Assembly (NCBI GenBank): GCA_040224245.1
Contig: JBEGIR010000026.1
Span: forward strand, 414-64,413
DNA from: Puniceicoccaceae bacterium
GTDB taxonomy: Bacteria; Verrucomicrobiota; Verrucomicrobiia; Opitutales; JAFGAQ01
Direction: 5' to 3'
Length of the DNA stretch: 64,000 nucleotides
The position numbers and the translations under genes were made by a program. Shown here piece after piece: positions 3,002-38,396 of this stretch (position 1 is the stretch's first letter; each line of letters begins with the position of its first letter). The notes under the pieces are model-generated. The model searched no databases. It saw only the letters and a list, made by a program, of their open reading frames with translations, and was not told the origin of the DNA.

Positions 3002-3024
3002 GGAGAACTCACTACAAGGGGAAC

Positions 3025-4239
3025 ATGAAACAACGCTTCATTCAACGCCTGAGCCTGCTCAGCGCAACCGCAGCCATCTGCTTGACCACTCACGCGGTCG
3101 ACATGGAAAATGTCTACATCAACGGATTCATCAGTCAGGGTTATCTGAAATCTTCGGATAATCGCCTGATGGGAGATACGGACGATGGTACCTGGGAATT
3201 CAACGAAGCCGCCATCAGCGTGAAGGCACTGCTCGCCGACAACCTGTCCGCAGGCATCCAGCTGATGAGTCGCGACTTCGGCAATTCCGGAAACAATGAA
3301 CTCAAAGTGGACTGGGCTTTCCTGGACTATCGCCTCAACGACAGCGTCGGTGTGCGCGTTGGTAAGTTCAAGAAGCCGGAAGGCATCTACAATTCGATTC
3401 GCGATGCAGATGCGGTTCGCACGTCCATCCTGCTTCCACAGGGCATTTACAACGAACGGGTGCGCGACATCAACATCGCCATTCAGGGCGTCGGTCTGTA
3501 TGGATTTGCGGATCTGGCAGGTGCAGGGTCACTGGACTATGTCATCTATCTCGGCAACCAACCGGTGGATAAAAACGAACCCATCATCAAGGATGCTCTG
3601 CTAGCAGGATTCTACGGTATCACCAATGGTGGCAGCATTGAGTTCAAATACTCAGCGGGAACCCAATTGTTCTGGAACACTCCGATTACCGGTTTCCGTC
3701 TGGGAGCGTCTATGAACACCGCCCTCATCGAAATCAACGGAACCAATCAGGCCTATCCCTGGTTCCAATCCAGCATTACCGAGGAAGAACTCAAGGTACC
3801 CCTCAAGTACATCCTTTCTGCGGAATACCAGCGCGAGAACTGGACCTTCACTGCCGAGTACATGATTGAACCCATCGAAGCGAAAAACTCTCCCATCGGA
3901 GGCACCCCCACACCCATGGGTTTCCCCTCAGGCGGTGAGTATGACATCGAGACCGAAAGTTACTACGTGCAACTCACCTACCAACTTTCAGAAAAATGGC
4001 AGATCGGCAGCTACTACTCCTGGTCCTACGGTAGCGCAAATGGGATTCTGGATCGCAACAATCCGGCCCAACACCTCAAGGACTGGGCCTTGAGCGCGAA
4101 GCACGCCATCAATGAATGGTGGGTCGTCAAGGCAGAGTTCCATCTCTTTCAGGGATATCAAGGTGTCGAGGCCGATGAATCCGGTGTCTTTGAAAAGGAC
4201 TGGAACCTGATCGCCCTCAAATCCACCATCAGCTTCTAA
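3025..4239 (+). CDS. Outer-membrane porin-like beta-barrel protein
   Basis: N-terminal signal peptide (LSLLSATAAICLTTHA), alternating amphipathic strands, and a C-terminal aromatic residue (KSTISF). Confidence 0.6.
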   Translation: MKQRFIQRLSLLSATAAICLTTHAVDMENVYINGFISQGYLKSSDNRLMGDTDDGTWEFNEAAISVKALLADNLSAGIQLMSRDFGNSGNNELKVDWAFLDYRLNDSVGVRVGKFKKPEGIYNSIRDADAVRTSILLPQGIYNERVRDINIAIQGVGLYGFADLAGAGSLDYVIYLGNQPVDKNEPIIKDALLAGFYGITNGGSIEFKYSAGTQLFWNTPITGFRLGASMNTALIEINGTNQAYPWFQSSITEEELKVPLKYILSAEYQRENWTFTAEYMIEPIEAKNSPIGGTPTPMGFPSGGEYDIETESYYVQLTYQLSEKWQIGSYYSWSYGSANGILDRNNPAQHLKDWALSAKHAINEWWVVKAEFHLFQGYQGVEADESGVFEKDWNLIALKSTISF

Positions 4240-33592: not shown

Positions 33593-35545
33593 CTACAAGC
33601 CCAGCTCTGCGATGATCAAGTCCGCACAGGCTGTGGGAGTCATGCCGTGGGTGTTCACTTTCAACTCGGGCTGCTCCGGCACTTCATAGGGGGCAGTCAC
33701 TCCGGTGAATTGCTTCACCTCACCTGCTCGGGCTTTGGCATAGAGTCCCTTCACATCGCGTGCCTCGCAGACCTCAAGCGGAGTATCCACAAAGATCTCG
33801 TGGAAGCGCTTGCGCTTCGCATCCGCAGTCGCGCGGTCCACAATGCCACGGGCAGTGTCCCGGTCCTCCTGGTAGGGTGAGATAAATGCAGTGATCACAA
33901 TCAGGCCTGCGTCATTCATCAGCGCAGCAACCTCCGCGATGCGTCGAATGTTCTCCTTGCGATCCTCAGGGCGGAAGCCGAGGTCCGAATTGAGTCCGTG
34001 ACGGATGTTGTCCCCATCGAGGATGTAGGCCTTTTTCCCCATCGCCACCAACTTGGCCTCCAGATGCTGGGCGATCGTGGACTTCCCGGAACCCGACAGT
34101 CCCGTCAGCCAAATCGTAGCGGGTGCATGCCCCATCAGATCCTGGCGATCCGACGTGCTGACCATGCCCTTTTCCCAGTTGAGGTTGTGCTTGCCCGTCA
34201 CTTTCTTCTGCGGAGCAGCACGCTGCTCGGTGATCATGCCAGCCGCAACCGTCGCGTTGCTGAGCGGGTCAATCAGCACGAAGGAACCCGTCTTGTCATT
34301 GCGACTGTAGCTGTCGAAGCAGAAACTGCGGTGTGCGGTAAATCCGACGCGTCCGATTTCATTCATCTCCAGCGCATCCCCATCAAGTCGGCTCAGGCTA
34401 TTGATATCAAACTTGTAGCGCACCCCGTCCAGCGTGACTGGCAAGGTCTGCGTGGTACTCTTGAGCAGGTAGTTTCGTCCCGCCTGCAACTTCTTTTCGT
34501 GCATCCACACAACTTGAGCGTCAAATCCACTCTCAATGGTCGGACGGTTGTTCGGGTGACTGAGAATCGACCCACGGGAAATGTCCACCTCATCGGTCGT
34601 GGTCAGCGTCACCGCCATCGGCGCAAACGCCTCCTTCAACTCGCCATCATAGGTCACGATGCTCTTGATCCGTGTCTCCTTGCCCGATGGATTTACAACC
34701 ACCTTGTCCCCCACACGCACCACTCCAGATGCAATGGTTCCACAAAATCCGCGAAAGTTCAGGTTCGGGCGCAGCACATACTGCACAGGAAAACGAAAAT
34801 CGATCAGGTTGCGGTCGGCTGTGATTTCCACCGATTCCAGATGACTGAGCAGTGGGCGACCCTCAAACCACGGCATGTTCGTGCTGCGCTCGACCACGTT
34901 GTCCCCCTTGAGCGCGGACATCGGGATGAAGTGCAGGTCGATGGACTCAAACTTTGCCGCAAACCCGAGATAATCCTTGCGGATTTTTTCAAACACGGCC
35001 TCATCAAAACCCACCGCATCCATCTTGTTCACCGCCACCACCAAGTGCTTGATGCCCAGAAGGCTTGCAATAAAGCTGTGACGCTTGGTCTGCGGCATCA
35101 CCCCGTGGCGCGCATCAATCAGCACAATCGCCAGGTCGCAGTGACTCGCACCCGTGGCCATATTGCGCGTATACTGCTCGTGACCGGGCGCATCACAGAT
35201 GATGAAACTGCGCTTCTCAGTCGAAAAATAGCGATAGGCCACATCAATGGTGATGCCCTGCTCCCGCTCCGCCTTCAACCCATCAGTCAGCAGCGCTGGG
35301 TCAAAGTCATCACCCGTGGTACCGTGCACCTTGGAGTCCTTCAGCACCGCCGCCAGCTGGTCCTCATAGATCATCTGCGAATCGTAGAGCAGTCGTCCAA
35401 TCAGCGTGCTCTTACCGTCATCGACGCTGCCGCAGGTCAAAAACCGCAGCATGTCCTTCTCCTCATGGCGCTTGAGGTAGGCACTGATGTCGCTGCGAAT
35501 GAGGTCTTGTTCGCGGATTTTATAGTTTCGATTTTCCGATGTCAT
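33593..35545 (-). CDS. cysNC: Bifunctional sulfate adenylyltransferase subunit 1 / adenylylsulfate kinase (CysN-CysC fusion)
   Basis: GTPase motifs (GSVDDGKST, DAPGH, NKMD), followed by the APS-kinase P-loop LTGLSGSGKSTIA and DGDNIRHGL. Confidence 0.95.
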   Translation of the reverse strand: MTSENRNYKIREQDLIRSDISAYLKRHEEKDMLRFLTCGSVDDGKSTLIGRLLYDSQMIYEDQLAAVLKDSKVHGTTGDDFDPALLTDGLKAEREQGITIDVAYRYFSTEKRSFIICDAPGHEQYTRNMATGASHCDLAIVLIDARHGVMPQTKRHSFIASLLGIKHLVVAVNKMDAVGFDEAVFEKIRKDYLGFAAKFESIDLHFIPMSALKGDNVVERSTNMPWFEGRPLLSHLESVEITADRNLIDFRFPVQYVLRPNLNFRGFCGTIASGVVRVGDKVVVNPSGKETRIKSIVTYDGELKEAFAPMAVTLTTTDEVDISRGSILSHPNNRPTIESGFDAQVVWMHEKKLQAGRNYLLKSTTQTLPVTLDGVRYKFDINSLSRLDGDALEMNEIGRVGFTAHRSFCFDSYSRNDKTGSFVLIDPLSNATVAAGMITEQRAAPQKKVTGKHNLNWEKGMVSTSDRQDLMGHAPATIWLTGLSGSGKSTIAQHLEAKLVAMGKKAYILDGDNIRHGLNSDLGFRPEDRKENIRRIAEVAALMNDAGLIVITAFISPYQEDRDTARGIVDRATADAKRKRFHEIFVDTPLEVCEARDVKGLYAKARAGEVKQFTGVTAPYEVPEQPELKVNTHGMTPTACADLIIAELGL

Positions 35546-35552
35546 CGTAAAA

Positions 35553-35584
35553 TAGGAGTTAGAAGTTAGGAGTCAGAAGTTAGC
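35553..35584 (-). repeat. Distal arm of the long-range inverted repeat bracketing the four-helix-bundle ORF
   Basis: Its reverse complement pairs with 35942-35973 at 24 of 32 positions, including 12 contiguous pairs (AGGAGUCAGGAG/CUUCUGACUCCU). It overlaps the ORF's last codons and stop. Confidence 0.7.
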
Positions 35585-35941
35585 TTTTTCCATCAAAACT
35601 GAATTCCTGTAGGCATTGAGAATGCGTCCAACTTCGTTTGCTTGTTCTTTCACTTCTCGGGTATCTCCATAACCGAGATCATTGATTAATATAAGATAAT
35701 ATTTCACCTCTTCGAGGGAAGCTTGGGCAATATTCAAGTATCTTGCCTTGTCAGCAACAGACTCTTTTGCAAAGCCTTCGGCAATGTTGGCAGGAATCGA
35801 AACTGCAGCGCGCCGAAACTGAGAAGTCAGACCGAAATCTTCATTTCTCGGAAAAGAAGCACTGATCTTGTAGCTCGCCAAAACCAAAGCATGCGACTTC
35901 TGCCACAGGACCAAGTCCTCGAACTTCTTAGCCTTTTCCAT
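35573..35941 (-). CDS. Four-helix-bundle protein (23S rRNA intervening-sequence protein / Avd-like family)
   Basis: 122 aa. LWQKSHALVLASYKISASFP...QFRRAAVSIPANIAEGF...YLNIAQASLEEVKYYL matches the family signature. Markedly lower G+C than the flanking cys genes. Confidence 0.85.
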   Translation of the reverse strand: MEKAKKFEDLVLWQKSHALVLASYKISASFPRNEDFGLTSQFRRAAVSIPANIAEGFAKESVADKARYLNIAQASLEEVKYYLILINDLGYGDTREVKEQANEVGRILNAYRNSVLMEKANF

Positions 35942-35973
35942 GCTTTCTCCTGACTCCTGGCTTCTTGCTTCTG
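35942..35973 (-). repeat. Proximal arm of the long-range inverted repeat bracketing the four-helix-bundle ORF
   Basis: It abuts the ORF start codon (35941) and is complementary to 35553-35584. A separate local hairpin, TCTGAACC-tt-GGTTCAGA, lies at 35974-35991. Confidence 0.7.
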
Positions 35974-35992
35974 TCTGAACCTTGGTTCAGAT

Positions 35993-36913
35993 CTAGAAAT
36001 ACCCATCCCGCTTCTTGTCCTCCATCGAGGCGGCGCCGTCGTAATCGATCACGCGTCCCTGGCGCTCAGAGGTGGTCGTGAGCAACATCTCCTGCACAAT
36101 GTCTTCGAGCGTTTCCGCCTCGGACTCCACCGCACCCGTCAGCGGGTAGCACCCCAGGGTGCGGAAGCGCACCTTTTTCATCACAGGCTGTTCGCCCGGT
36201 TCCAGGCGCATGCGCTCATCGTCCACCATGATCATCACACCGTTGCGCATGACCACTGGTCTCTCCTTCGCAAAATACAATGGCACAATTGGAATCTTCT
36301 CGATCTGGATGTAACGCCAGATGTCCAGCTCCGTCCAGTCTGACATGGGAAATACCCGGATCGACTCACCTTTGTTGATCTTGGTGTTGTAAAGGTCCCA
36401 GAGTTCCGGACGCTGATTCTTCGGATCCCACTGGTGAAACTGGTTGCGAAAGCTGAAGACACGCTCCTTTGCTCTGGATTTTTCCTCATCGCGCCGGGCC
36501 CCACCAAATGCCGCATCAAAGCCGTGCTTGTTGAGCGCTTGCTTCAGCCCTTCGGTCTTCATGATTTGCGTATGCTTCTCCGATCCATGGTCGAACGGGT
36601 TGATCCCCGCTTCCACGCCTTCCGGATTCTGGTGCACCAGCAAATCAAACCCCACATCGTTTGCCATCTGCTCCCGAAACGCATACATTTCCCGAAACTT
36701 CCACCCCGTATCCACATGCAGCAGCGGGAATGGAATCTTGCCGGGATGAAAGGCCTTGCGCGCCAGATGAAGCAGAACCGAGGAGTCCTTTCCGATGCTG
36801 TAAAGCATCACCGGATTCGAAAACTCCGCAGCCACTTCACGCATGATGTGAATGCTCTCAGCCTCCAGTTGACGTAAATGAGTGATCGTATAGTCGGGCA
36901 TAGCTGAATTCAT
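35993..36913 (-). CDS. cysD: Sulfate adenylyltransferase subunit 2
   Basis: [42 protein letters not shown]-like and GYF at the C-terminus. Full-length CysD. Confidence 0.95.
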
Positions 36914-36999: not shown

Positions 37000-37034
37000 T
37001 TAAAAAAAAGAACGGTTTCCACCGAAACCGTTCT
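37000..37034 (-). terminator. Rho-independent terminator downstream of the signal-peptidase gene
   Basis: AGAACGGTTTC-cacc-GAAACCGTTCT is a perfect 11-bp stem (37009-37034), followed on the minus strand by a run of eight T. Confidence 0.75.
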
Positions 37035-37144: not shown

Positions 37145-37543
37145 TTAGGAAAGGGAACGTCCCCCAATGTGGGTGACCTTGCCCAAAAGATTTTGATCTG
37201 AAATGAACCCACGATCCCGAAAGCGGTTGTTGTCCCCTTTCGACTTTGCCCGACCGTCCTCAATCTCAACGATGCGGTGGCACACGCGCTCCCCCGTTTG
37301 CGTATCCACAAAGACCACGATGTCCCCTGGTTTCAGATTCGAAAACTGGGTTTTGCGATACACAACATAGTCACCGCTTTTGATCGTCGGATACATCGAA
37401 AATCCATGCAACTGCGACCGCACTACCGCTGGCTCAGATGCCGACAACGCAGAGGCTTGACTCGAAATCGGCGCAATAGCGTTAACGCAAAGAAGCATAA
37501 ATACATAGCGAAACAAATTCTTCATGGCGACAAACTTAAACAA
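37145..37543 (-). CDS. Signal peptidase I, ER/archaeal (SipW-like, S26B) type
   Basis: N-terminal TM, GFSMYPTIKSGD (catalytic Ser box), GDIVVF, and CHRIVEI (His where bacterial P-type enzymes have Lys). Also carries the KGDNN box and GKV. Confidence 0.65.
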   Translation of the reverse strand: MFKFVAMKNLFRYVFMLLCVNAIAPISSQASALSASEPAVVRSQLHGFSMYPTIKSGDYVVYRKTQFSNLKPGDIVVFVDTQTGERVCHRIVEIEDGRAKSKGDNNRFRDRGFISDQNLLGKVTHIGGRSLS

Positions 37544-38029
37544 GGACTAAAGATTGAAATTCAAAAATCGACCACCCGCTAATTTCTCATCCTCATAGAC
37601 TTATGAATCAGAAAACTGGAATGACTTGATCTATATTTCGAACTTAAACCCAATTCTTTAAGTCATTTTTTGCGTCACCCACTTCTTTAAAAGATTTTTT
37701 ATTTACAAAACGTAAAAGCCTTCATTCCCCTAAATGTAAAATTTTATTTATATTATAAATTTATTATAAAATTCATCTTTTCATTGGTAAACTTCTCTTC
37801 AATTCACTCCTCAATTCAAAAGTTTTTGTAAATTCGTCCCCTTCTCACTCAAGCGCGATCCAATGACACAGGCACCACCTCAAACTGGATACCTGAAACA
37901 TCCCTTCGCAATCGCTTTTCACAAGCGGAAACGATCTACAAATCCCTCGACGGGTTTTGGCGGAGCCGAGGGTTTCTAGCTGATGCAAACTGGGCTTTCC
38001 TTAAAGGAAAACGATGCGAGACTCGTCAT

Positions 38030-38396
38030 ATGATTACTCAACTGAGTGCAGATGAAACTTCTCCGACTGAAAAGCCCTTACTGATCCTGAGAATTCTCCG
38101 AAACGGGGTCAAAGATCTCTTTTTTGGATACGGGGAAAGCCTTTGGAGAATTTTCTTCACTTACGTCTTCGTTGCGTTCGTATTCACGATCCTCTTTCGA
38201 TACTTCATGAACGAACTGACATTCCTCAGGACGCTCCGTGAAAGTATCTTCAACATGATCGGTCAAGGTTCAGATGATTTTAAGTCCATCAAAGAACCCC
38301 TGCTCTTCGACATGCTGAAATGCTGCAATCAACAATCGGAGTTCTCCTGACCGCGATTTTTGGTTTCGTATTGGCCAACCGAATCCGAAATCAGTG
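38030..38396 (+). pseudogene. Small membrane protein gene disrupted by an 8-bp tandem duplication (remnant of a larger membrane-anchored protein)
   Basis: The ORF stops at 38350. The tandem pair ATGCTGAA (38312-38319) / ATGCTGCA (38320-38327) shifts the frame. Deleting one copy restores ...LLFDMLQSTIGVLLTAIFGFVLANRIRNQ*, which ends at 38396 and adds a terminal TM helix. Confidence 0.45.

Follow-up and report, generated by a model that had tools for sequence, protein, structure and literature searches.

An intervening-sequence-like cassette bracketed by inverted heptamer arrays between cysD and cysNC of a Puniceicoccaceae bacterium

Intervening sequences (IVSs) that carry an open reading frame (ORF) have been reported in the 23S rRNA of Coxiella burnetii and also of Leptospira, Brucella and Xanthomonas. 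The origin of rRNA IVSs and the function of their S23p ORF have been open questions since the early 1990s, and the study material has come from few pathogens. The IVS of C. burnetii, which lies in helix 45, bears an AG-rich motif (AGAAGA) and three GACAGAU heptamers plus a degenerate fourth directly before the ATG of the S23p ORF; the heptamer copy number varies among strains, RNase III cleaves where the first repeat begins, as mapped by rapid amplification of cDNA ends and reproduced in vitro, and the ORF has been reported as decaying and untranslated (Warrier et al. 2016, PMC4990558). In this report, we analyze a cassette of similar build that lies in the spacer between cysD and cysNC of a Puniceicoccaceae bacterium, on a 64-kb stretch of one contig (JBEGIR010000026.1) of a metagenome-assembled genome (MAG). 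This whole stretch is called the window, all positions of the locus are window positions, and IVP is our name for the 122-amino-acid protein that the cassette encodes. The features of the locus are as follows.

35993-36913, minus strand: cysD (sulfate adenylyltransferase subunit 2), the upstream host gene (PF01507/PAPS_reduct, E 3e-59)
35974-35992, minus strand: 7-bp hairpin AUCUGAAC-CAAG-GUUCAGA, 19 nt, between the cysD stop and the 5' arm (from the minimum free energy (MFE) fold and the orthologue flanks)
35942-35973, minus strand: 5' arm, 32 nt, about 4.5 tandem heptamers ending at the IVP start codon (from repeat finding, Tandem Repeats Finder (TRF) and pair probabilities)
35573-35941, minus strand: IVP gene, encoding the 122-amino-acid four-helix-bundle protein (S23p/23S_rRNA_IVP/TIGR02436; PF05635, TIGR02436 and 2GSC matches)
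35553-35584, minus strand: 3' arm, 32 nt, heptamers complementary to the 5' arm (from repeat finding, TRF and pair probabilities)
35546-35552, minus strand: spacer UUUUACG, 7 nt (read from the sequence)
33593-35545, minus strand: cysNC (sulfate adenylyltransferase subunit 1 fused to APS kinase), the downstream host gene (Pfam GTP_EFTU and APS_kinase)
37002-37033, minus strand: terminator-like hairpin GAACGGTTTC-GGTG-GAAACCGTTC, followed by T8 (read from the sequence)

Both arms consist of tandem 7-nt repeats (TRF period 7), a structure that the first-pass annotation of this DNA, a reading of the letters without database searches, had missed. The units of the 5' arm are CAGAAGC AAGAAGC CAGGAGU CAGGAGA AAGC (consensus heptamer YAGRAGN), and the last unit carries a Shine-Dalgarno (SD)-like AGGAG before the IVP start codon. 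The units of the 3' arm are GCUAACU UCUGACU CCUAACU UCUAACU CCUA, and this arm shares the last 12 nt of the IVP ORF (three sense codons and the stop). The complementarity at 24 of 32 positions that had been noted there, with a 12-bp core, is reproduced in register as 23 Watson-Crick pairs and one G:U, the latter lying within the core; mismatches sit at the heptamer boundaries, shifted registers give at most 12 Watson-Crick pairs, and an inverted-repeat search returned the arms as 31 nt with 74% complementarity. Among 2721 window segment pairs with this geometry, 1 reached the observed pairing score, as did 2 of 2000 composition-preserving shuffles. The long stem that had been expected to enclose the whole ORF is also recovered on folding: the MFE structure closes it (z = -2.66), 20 bp have pair probabilities of 0.92-1.0, and the result is the same after 150 or 300 nt of flanking coding sequence have been added on each side. 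The predicted stem spans the IVP ribosome-binding site, again with pair probabilities near 1. The anatomy of the cassette is confirmed by these results as a PF05635 gene bracketed exactly by inverted 7-nt repeat arrays. Upstream of the 5' arm, the 7-bp hairpin that follows cysD is present in all orthologues with upstream sequence and comes in two types, UCUGAA/UUCAGA and AAAUUUC/GAAAUUU.

IVP passes the curated thresholds of both PF05635 (120.7 bits, E 4e-35, cutoff 33.8) and TIGR02436 (117.4 bits, cutoff 24). Its closest solved relative in a sequence search is XCC0516 (PDB 2GSC, E 8.7e-19), a homopentamer, and 2RLD is also homologous. Judged by these matches, IVP is a clear member of the TIGR02436/PF05635 'four helix bundle protein' genes and is expected to have the four-helix-bundle fold of that family, as the first-pass annotation had proposed for the ORF between cysD and cysNC. 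The low G+C content noted there holds as well (43.6% in the IVP ORF versus 54.8% in cysD and 56.6% in cysNC). IVP has a pI of 7.9 and a near-neutral charge, and its exact sequence occurs as an annotated protein of a Puniceicoccaceae MAG. PADLOC gave no defence match. A consensus scan of the cassette interior gave no promoter-like or terminator-like signal. In the 64-kb window there is no Rfam match (rRNA included) and no tRNA match, and the further arm copies and paralogous genes that the first-pass annotation had envisaged are likewise absent from it.

The cassette shares with the 23S rRNA IVSs the PF05635/S23p family, a sense ORF within the host transcript and complementary ends that enclose this ORF. 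With the Coxiella IVS in particular it shares an AG-rich motif and tandem heptamers just before the start codon, and a unit number that varies, so that the likeness to IVS architecture is stronger than had been claimed from the complementary ends. In contrast to the rRNA elements, it resides in an mRNA spacer and not in helix 25 or 45 of the 23S rRNA; the Coxiella stem is cleaved by RNase III, whereas cleavage of the window stem is proposed only by analogy; and the Coxiella ORF appears to be decaying and untranslated, whereas the window ORF is under strong purifying selection (dN/dS, the ratio of nonsynonymous to synonymous substitution rates, of about 0.1). Sequence comparison suggests that the cassette is an element of the IVS type that resides in an mRNA spacer and belongs to a broad, barely described class. 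In the open-access literature searched, PF05635/TIGR02436 is treated as a protein family of unknown function, with no description of inverted heptamer arrays, of operon co-orientation or of filled, empty and scar alleles; heptamers are mentioned there for the Coxiella IVS alone, and heptamer-bracketed PF05635 cassettes outside rRNA are not.

Inverted heptamer arrays are a hallmark of the whole IVP family. When one genome per species was scanned with an IVP alignment, 80 loci from many phyla were obtained, and the counts that follow use 70 or 71 loci; the 70-locus sample covers Cyanobacteria, Nitrospirota, Acidobacteria, Deltaproteobacteria, Verrucomicrobia, Planctomycetes, Bacteroidota and others. 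At most family loci, (CAGGAGU)n-like arrays run up to the ATG and complementary (ACUCCUG)n arrays begin at or in the stop codon. The autocorrelation of the flanks at lag 7 is 0.47 upstream and 0.46 downstream (70 loci), against about 0.27 at other lags. The repeat unit varies by locus (CAGGAGA, CAGAAUU, CAGGAGC, UAGGAGC, GUAGCAA and others), but within a locus the two sides agree: own arm pairs share a mean of 3.94 8-mers and foreign pairs 1.48, a difference reached in 0 of 5000 permutations. This permutation test replaced a ranking of each own 3' partner by duplex energy among all 3' arms, which was dropped as uninformative, since the long consensus CAGGAGU arrays ranked first throughout. Of 71 loci, 55 have a clear complementary segment (median length 26 nt). 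At 42 of the 71, the stop codon forms part of the first 3' unit, with NUYCU coming directly after it; an SD-like motif is found between -16 and -5 at 42 of the 71; and IVP C-termini ending in -DS, -NS or -GS mirror the repeat unit GACUCCUGA.

The cassettes of the family are oriented with their host genes, since the upstream neighbour is co-oriented in 57 cases versus 10 and the downstream neighbour in 54 versus 15; the median upstream gap is 61 nt. The conserved 23S motif was found at none of the 85 fetched loci, and none of the 80 genome loci has a cysD/cysN context. Among 2.9 million viral contigs there was one weak match, which indicates that this IVP subfamily is not phage-borne.

Orthologous loci allow the history of the window cassette to be followed. 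Three of them (L004, L005 and L166) hold the full cysD-IVP-cysNC arrangement, and two shorter contigs (L167 and L168) carry the same IVP with its cysNC-side flanks; identity to the window protein is 79% at L004, 75% at L005, 71% at L166, 72% at L167 and 75% at L168. The dN/dS of IVP among the orthologues is 0.065-0.12, with dS saturated, and the protein is clearly under strong purifying selection. In-register arm pairs are kept at 23-26 of 32 positions in the five orthologues with aligned arms, with duplex energies of -23 to -42 kcal/mol. Pairwise identity amounts to 79% in the arms of the four loci for which both flanks are aligned, 83% at IVP codon positions 1 and 2 and 49% at position 3, and the difference between the arms and the third positions shows that the arms, too, are under purifying selection. 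Relatives that carry the gene keep the flanking complementarity, in the orthologues as in most of the family loci, in agreement with the first-pass annotation. Two arm variants were also seen among the orthologues: the 3' arm is duplicated at L005:3358-3475 (insert of about 60-80 nt), and a direct duplication of about 44 nt lies in the 5' arm region at L166:2383-2500.

IVP identities rank in the same order as cysD identities, consistent with vertical inheritance. The G+C content at third codon positions is 0.35-0.46 in IVP and 0.54-0.71 in the host genes cysD and cysNC at all orthologous loci, despite saturated synonymous divergence; low G+C is therefore a persistent property of the gene and not a sign of recent arrival. 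That the composition has not moved toward that of the host may reflect some constraint, such as an unstructured loop, or the gene having been replaced repeatedly. When metagenomes were scanned with cysD, 80 loci (379 kb) were obtained, and in these the cysD-cysN spacers mostly measure -7 to +46 nt, as expected of genes that had been taken to be normally adjacent. In L086, the nearest lineage that lacks the cassette and the sister branch to the cassette-bearing clade, the spacer measures 35 nt. This is an empty site of the kind that the first-pass annotation had looked to in related genomes, and it suggests one gain in the ancestor of the cassette-bearing clade. Together, these comparisons indicate that the ancestor of a subclade of Puniceicoccaceae acquired the cassette between cysD and cysNC and that its descendants have kept it. 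The proposal of an IVS-type insertion in an mRNA spacer is supported, but the event is not a recent one: the cassette is old and has been passed on by descent.

The same junction has also received other members of the family. A profile search of the 379 kb around the 80 cysD genes found three further intact IVP genes only (L087, L115 and L119), all exactly between cysD and cysN. Their IVPs are 33-40% identical to the window IVP, which is 60-67% identical to IVPs of other phyla; because the window IVP is nearer to the latter, the three are independent acquisitions of other subfamily members. The L087 IVP was considered as an orthologue of the window IVP and rejected, given its 40% identity versus 60-67% to other phyla and its different repeat units. 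The units are GUUGAGAUG at L087, NCAAGCU at L115, and AUGUGGG and ACGUAGG at L119 and L149, and each locus has its own ORF-enclosing stem in the MFE fold. L149, the sister of the intact L119, holds at 3015-3309 an internally deleted IVP remnant, in which N- and C-terminal parts are fused, at cysD|cysN with the AUGUGGG-type complementary arms kept. Divergent IVP cassettes have therefore entered the cysD|cysN junction independently at least three times. With about 380 junctions, of which about 62 are cysD|cysN, and even insertion, the chance that three of three insertions fall there is about 0.004 as a rough estimate, which suggests that cysD|cysN is a preferred insertion site. A different spacer at this junction, L097:1138-1289, measures 152 nt and contains a long inverted repeat (GTTGGGTTA..GCGCG / CGCGC..TAACCCAAC) without an ORF; it may be a further ORF-less remnant or an unrelated structured spacer.

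Gain and loss can be observed directly at the pixG|pixH junction in close relatives within Nostoc, in which PixH is 90-96% identical. Seven alleles are filled (L018, L024, L065, L068 and L171-L173), and three are empty (L170, L175 and L176), with AT-rich spacers of 47-68 nt that contain no heptamers. As the arms are absent from the empty alleles and present in the filled ones, they belong to the cassette. One scar allele, L174:1443-1500 in Nostoc sp. DSM 114161, lacks the gene and retains one 5'-type and three 3'-type units; it forms a small hairpin, UUAGAAUU-AAA-AAUUCUGA, plus CUCUUGACUCCUG, and resembles an ORF-less IVS. The number of repeat units differs among filled alleles (L172 versus L173), as it does among Coxiella strains. 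The insertion point lies about 5 nt past the upstream stop codon, and a target-site duplication is evident neither in the window nor at the Nostoc filled and empty sites, where the AT-rich repeats pre-exist in the empty alleles. In Nostoc mirabile (L065, about 2390-2494), the 5' heptamer array is twice interrupted by a small palindromic insert, GACGCGATTAATCGCGTC plus TGTACAGGAGTCAGGAG, reminiscent of short dispersed repeats in this genus whose targets are heptamer arrays.

We consider it fairly probable that the window holds an IVS-type cassette that is transcribed with its operon, whose stem loops out the ORF and is most likely a substrate of RNase III. The terminator-like hairpin at 37002-37033 lies downstream of the preceding S24-peptidase-like gene (Pfam match) and, although not listed by the consensus scan, suggests that cysD-IVP-cysNC is a separate transcription unit starting after the hairpin. 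The cassette would be transcribed within this message, and the two arrays would then pair into an imperfect stem of about 20-24 bp from which the whole IVP ORF is looped out. Once the stem has formed, the distance from the cysD stop to the cysNC start would be about 26 nt, similar to the empty site with its 35 nt. As in the homologous Coxiella 23S IVS, the stem would most likely be cut by RNase III; this would free the IVP message and split the cysD message from that of cysNC, possibly with an effect on cys expression, and the hairpin after cysD could protect the new 3' end. At minimum, the stem would provide structural insulation with which the host operon tolerates the insertion. The 3' arm, once transcribed, would hide the IVP ribosome-binding site, and with the AGGAG being part of the stem, most IVP translation would take place before the 3' arm has been synthesized.

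Several results weigh against this reading. The non-Watson-Crick positions of the stems comprise 57 G:U versus 44 A:C (p = 0.23), and since this excess is not significant, pairing of the sense-strand RNA is not distinguished from an inverted repeat at the DNA level. Covariation among the orthologues is weak, with 4 compensatory pairs, a number reached by 62 of 500 shuffles (five aligned), and the stem is kept mainly through the conserved AGRAG and CUYCU cores. Long-range pairs in the MFE folds barely separate a locus's own 3' flanks (28.2) from foreign (24.9) and shuffled ones (18.9), and 2x2 mismatches interrupt the stem every 7 nt. In addition, the Coxiella ORF appears to be decaying and untranslated whereas the window ORF is under strong purifying selection, so the biology of the two elements may differ.

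Because these RNA-level tests (G:U versus A:C, covariation and MFE contrasts) are weak, a role at the DNA level stays a serious rival. The heptamer arrays would then serve mainly as terminal inverted repeats or as binding sites for a protein, which may be the pentameric Avd-like IVP, in insertion, excision or maintenance, and the RNA stem would be a by-product. We rate this as the lesser possibility and rather unlikely as the main role, but it is compatible with an IVS-type, operon-transcribed cassette and does not exclude it. Gain, loss and scar alleles among close relatives would follow naturally from such a role, as would independent insertions at the one cysD|cysN junction, variation in unit number with arm duplications (L005 and L166; L172 versus L173), the possession by each cassette lineage of its own repeat unit on both sides, as in transposon families, and the near symmetry of G:U and A:C mismatches. 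Miniature inverted-repeat transposable elements and other small elements bounded by terminal inverted repeats have inverted termini, intergenic insertion, presence/absence polymorphism and possible RNA hairpins in host transcripts. However, the termini of the cassette are short tandem-repeat arrays, the gene it carries is conserved and is not a transposase gene, no recombinase or transposase is encoded in it, filled and empty sites show no evident target-site duplication, and the 64-kb window contains a single copy with no further arm motif; a role in the transcript is favoured instead by how strongly the cassettes are co-oriented with host genes and by the exact placement of the arms at the start and stop codons. 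Heptamer direct repeats of the unit TAACTGA have been described upstream of start codons in Beggiatoaceae, Cyanobacteria and Bacteroidetes (PMC4679880). Like the arrays analyzed here, they are intergenic tandem 7-nt units that end a few nucleotides from a start codon, vary in copy number and are patchy across phyla, but their unit is another one, they are direct repeats only, with no complementary downstream array, and they have no link to PF05635.

It is also conceivable, although we hold it to be improbable, that the arms merely regulate IVP translation, the 5' AGGAG motifs being ribosome-binding sites and the 3' CUCCU motifs mimicking the anti-Shine-Dalgarno sequence and sequestering them after being transcribed, so that less IVP would be made, with no cleavage and with the host genes unaffected. 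AGGAG in the 5' units, CUCCU in the 3' units, the SD-like motif upstream of more than half of the family genes and the ribosome-binding site inside the predicted stem are all consistent with this, but the same inverted arrays are built from units without SD-like sequence at L115, L119/L149, L087, L036 and L075, and the homologous Coxiella stem is cleaved. Chance or composition, that is, a purine-rich leader facing a pyrimidine-rich trailer around an ordinary small gene, has a negligible probability as the source of the complementarity. Shuffled composition-matched flanks do reach a mean duplex energy of -23.5 kcal/mol and many long-range MFE pairs; against this stand the rarity of the observed pairing score in background and shuffles, the 7-nt periodicity on both sides in 70 loci with a specific match between the arms of each locus, the conservation of the arms far above synonymous sites and the empty alleles without arms, and the background and permutation tests together with arm conservation refute this explanation.

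Hardly any probability attaches either to a remnant of a diversity-generating retroelement (DGR) or an orphan accessory gene (avd). The DGR protein Avd (bAvd, 4DWL) has a homologous four-helix-bundle fold, its pentamer binds nucleic acid and the DGR reverse transcriptase, and IVP has weak similarity to bAvd and to DGR Avd models. However, IVP falls below the Avd equivalog cutoff (NF033474, 30.6 bits, cutoff 80) and that of PF22296 (bAvd; 32.2, cutoff 40), and its pI of 7.9 compares with about 9.5 reported for Avd proteins. No reverse transcriptase is found by Pfam among the large ORFs 8-10 kb on either side, nor in the orthologous loci, and the sole direct repeat of at least 40 nt in 25000-46000 lies inside an ABC-F ATPase gene, so that this interval contains no pair of template and variable repeats. 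The statement of the first-pass annotation that this is not a DGR is thus correct for about 10 kb on either side.

More tentatively, we speculate that PF05635 genes with inverted heptamer arrays form a large cross-phylum class of mobile cassettes in transcribed spacers, both operon junctions and rRNA helices, each providing its own loop-out stem, with the Avd-like pentamer acting in mobility or maintenance; at present this is a possibility rather than a likelihood. If it is true, the repeated hits at cysD|cysN would reflect target preference. A mobility route dependent on RNA or on a reverse transcriptase is possible, given that one repeat is found at the two 3' ends of the duplex, a feature of telomeres as well. 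The cassettes split operons that are normally translationally coupled (cysD-cysN and pixG-pixH) and may create RNase III sites in mRNAs, and annotation pipelines label them merely 'four helix bundle protein'. An IVS-like cassette with its stem in ordinary operon spacers of many phyla, and with an intact, selected protein, makes the long-standing question of rRNA IVS origin and S23p function testable by comparison and experiment, for which cultivable Nostoc strains offer natural filled, empty and scar alleles.

Some further observations were made among the family loci and in the window. One Acidoferrales MAG contains a 2153-bp repeat element in at least 4 copies with 99.9% identity (L026:751-2903, and also L028, L030 and L034), with kin in relatives (L063, L081, L056 and L039). 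It comprises an IVP gene without heptamer arms and a divergent 578-amino-acid ORF, which has no match in Pfam, NCBIfam or PDB sequence searches; the element may be an uncharacterised mobile element with IVP as passenger or partner. In a Spirochaetaceae MAG (L045:1655-2320), five tandem 141-nt repeats, each corresponding to the first 34 IVP codons, lie directly upstream of a complete gene, and in one Planctomycetota locus (L073) two IVP genes lie within 2.2 kb. In Opitutaceae MAGs (L015, L048 and L078), IVP cassettes are located directly upstream of one conserved gene start (..PDLVTVNIDG..), which makes this a further operon-internal junction with cassettes in several relatives. In the window itself, a very AT-rich intergenic stretch (37560-37800, 25-32% G+C) separates the S24-peptidase-like gene (37145-37543, minus strand) from an unannotated 106-amino-acid ORF (38030-38350, plus strand).

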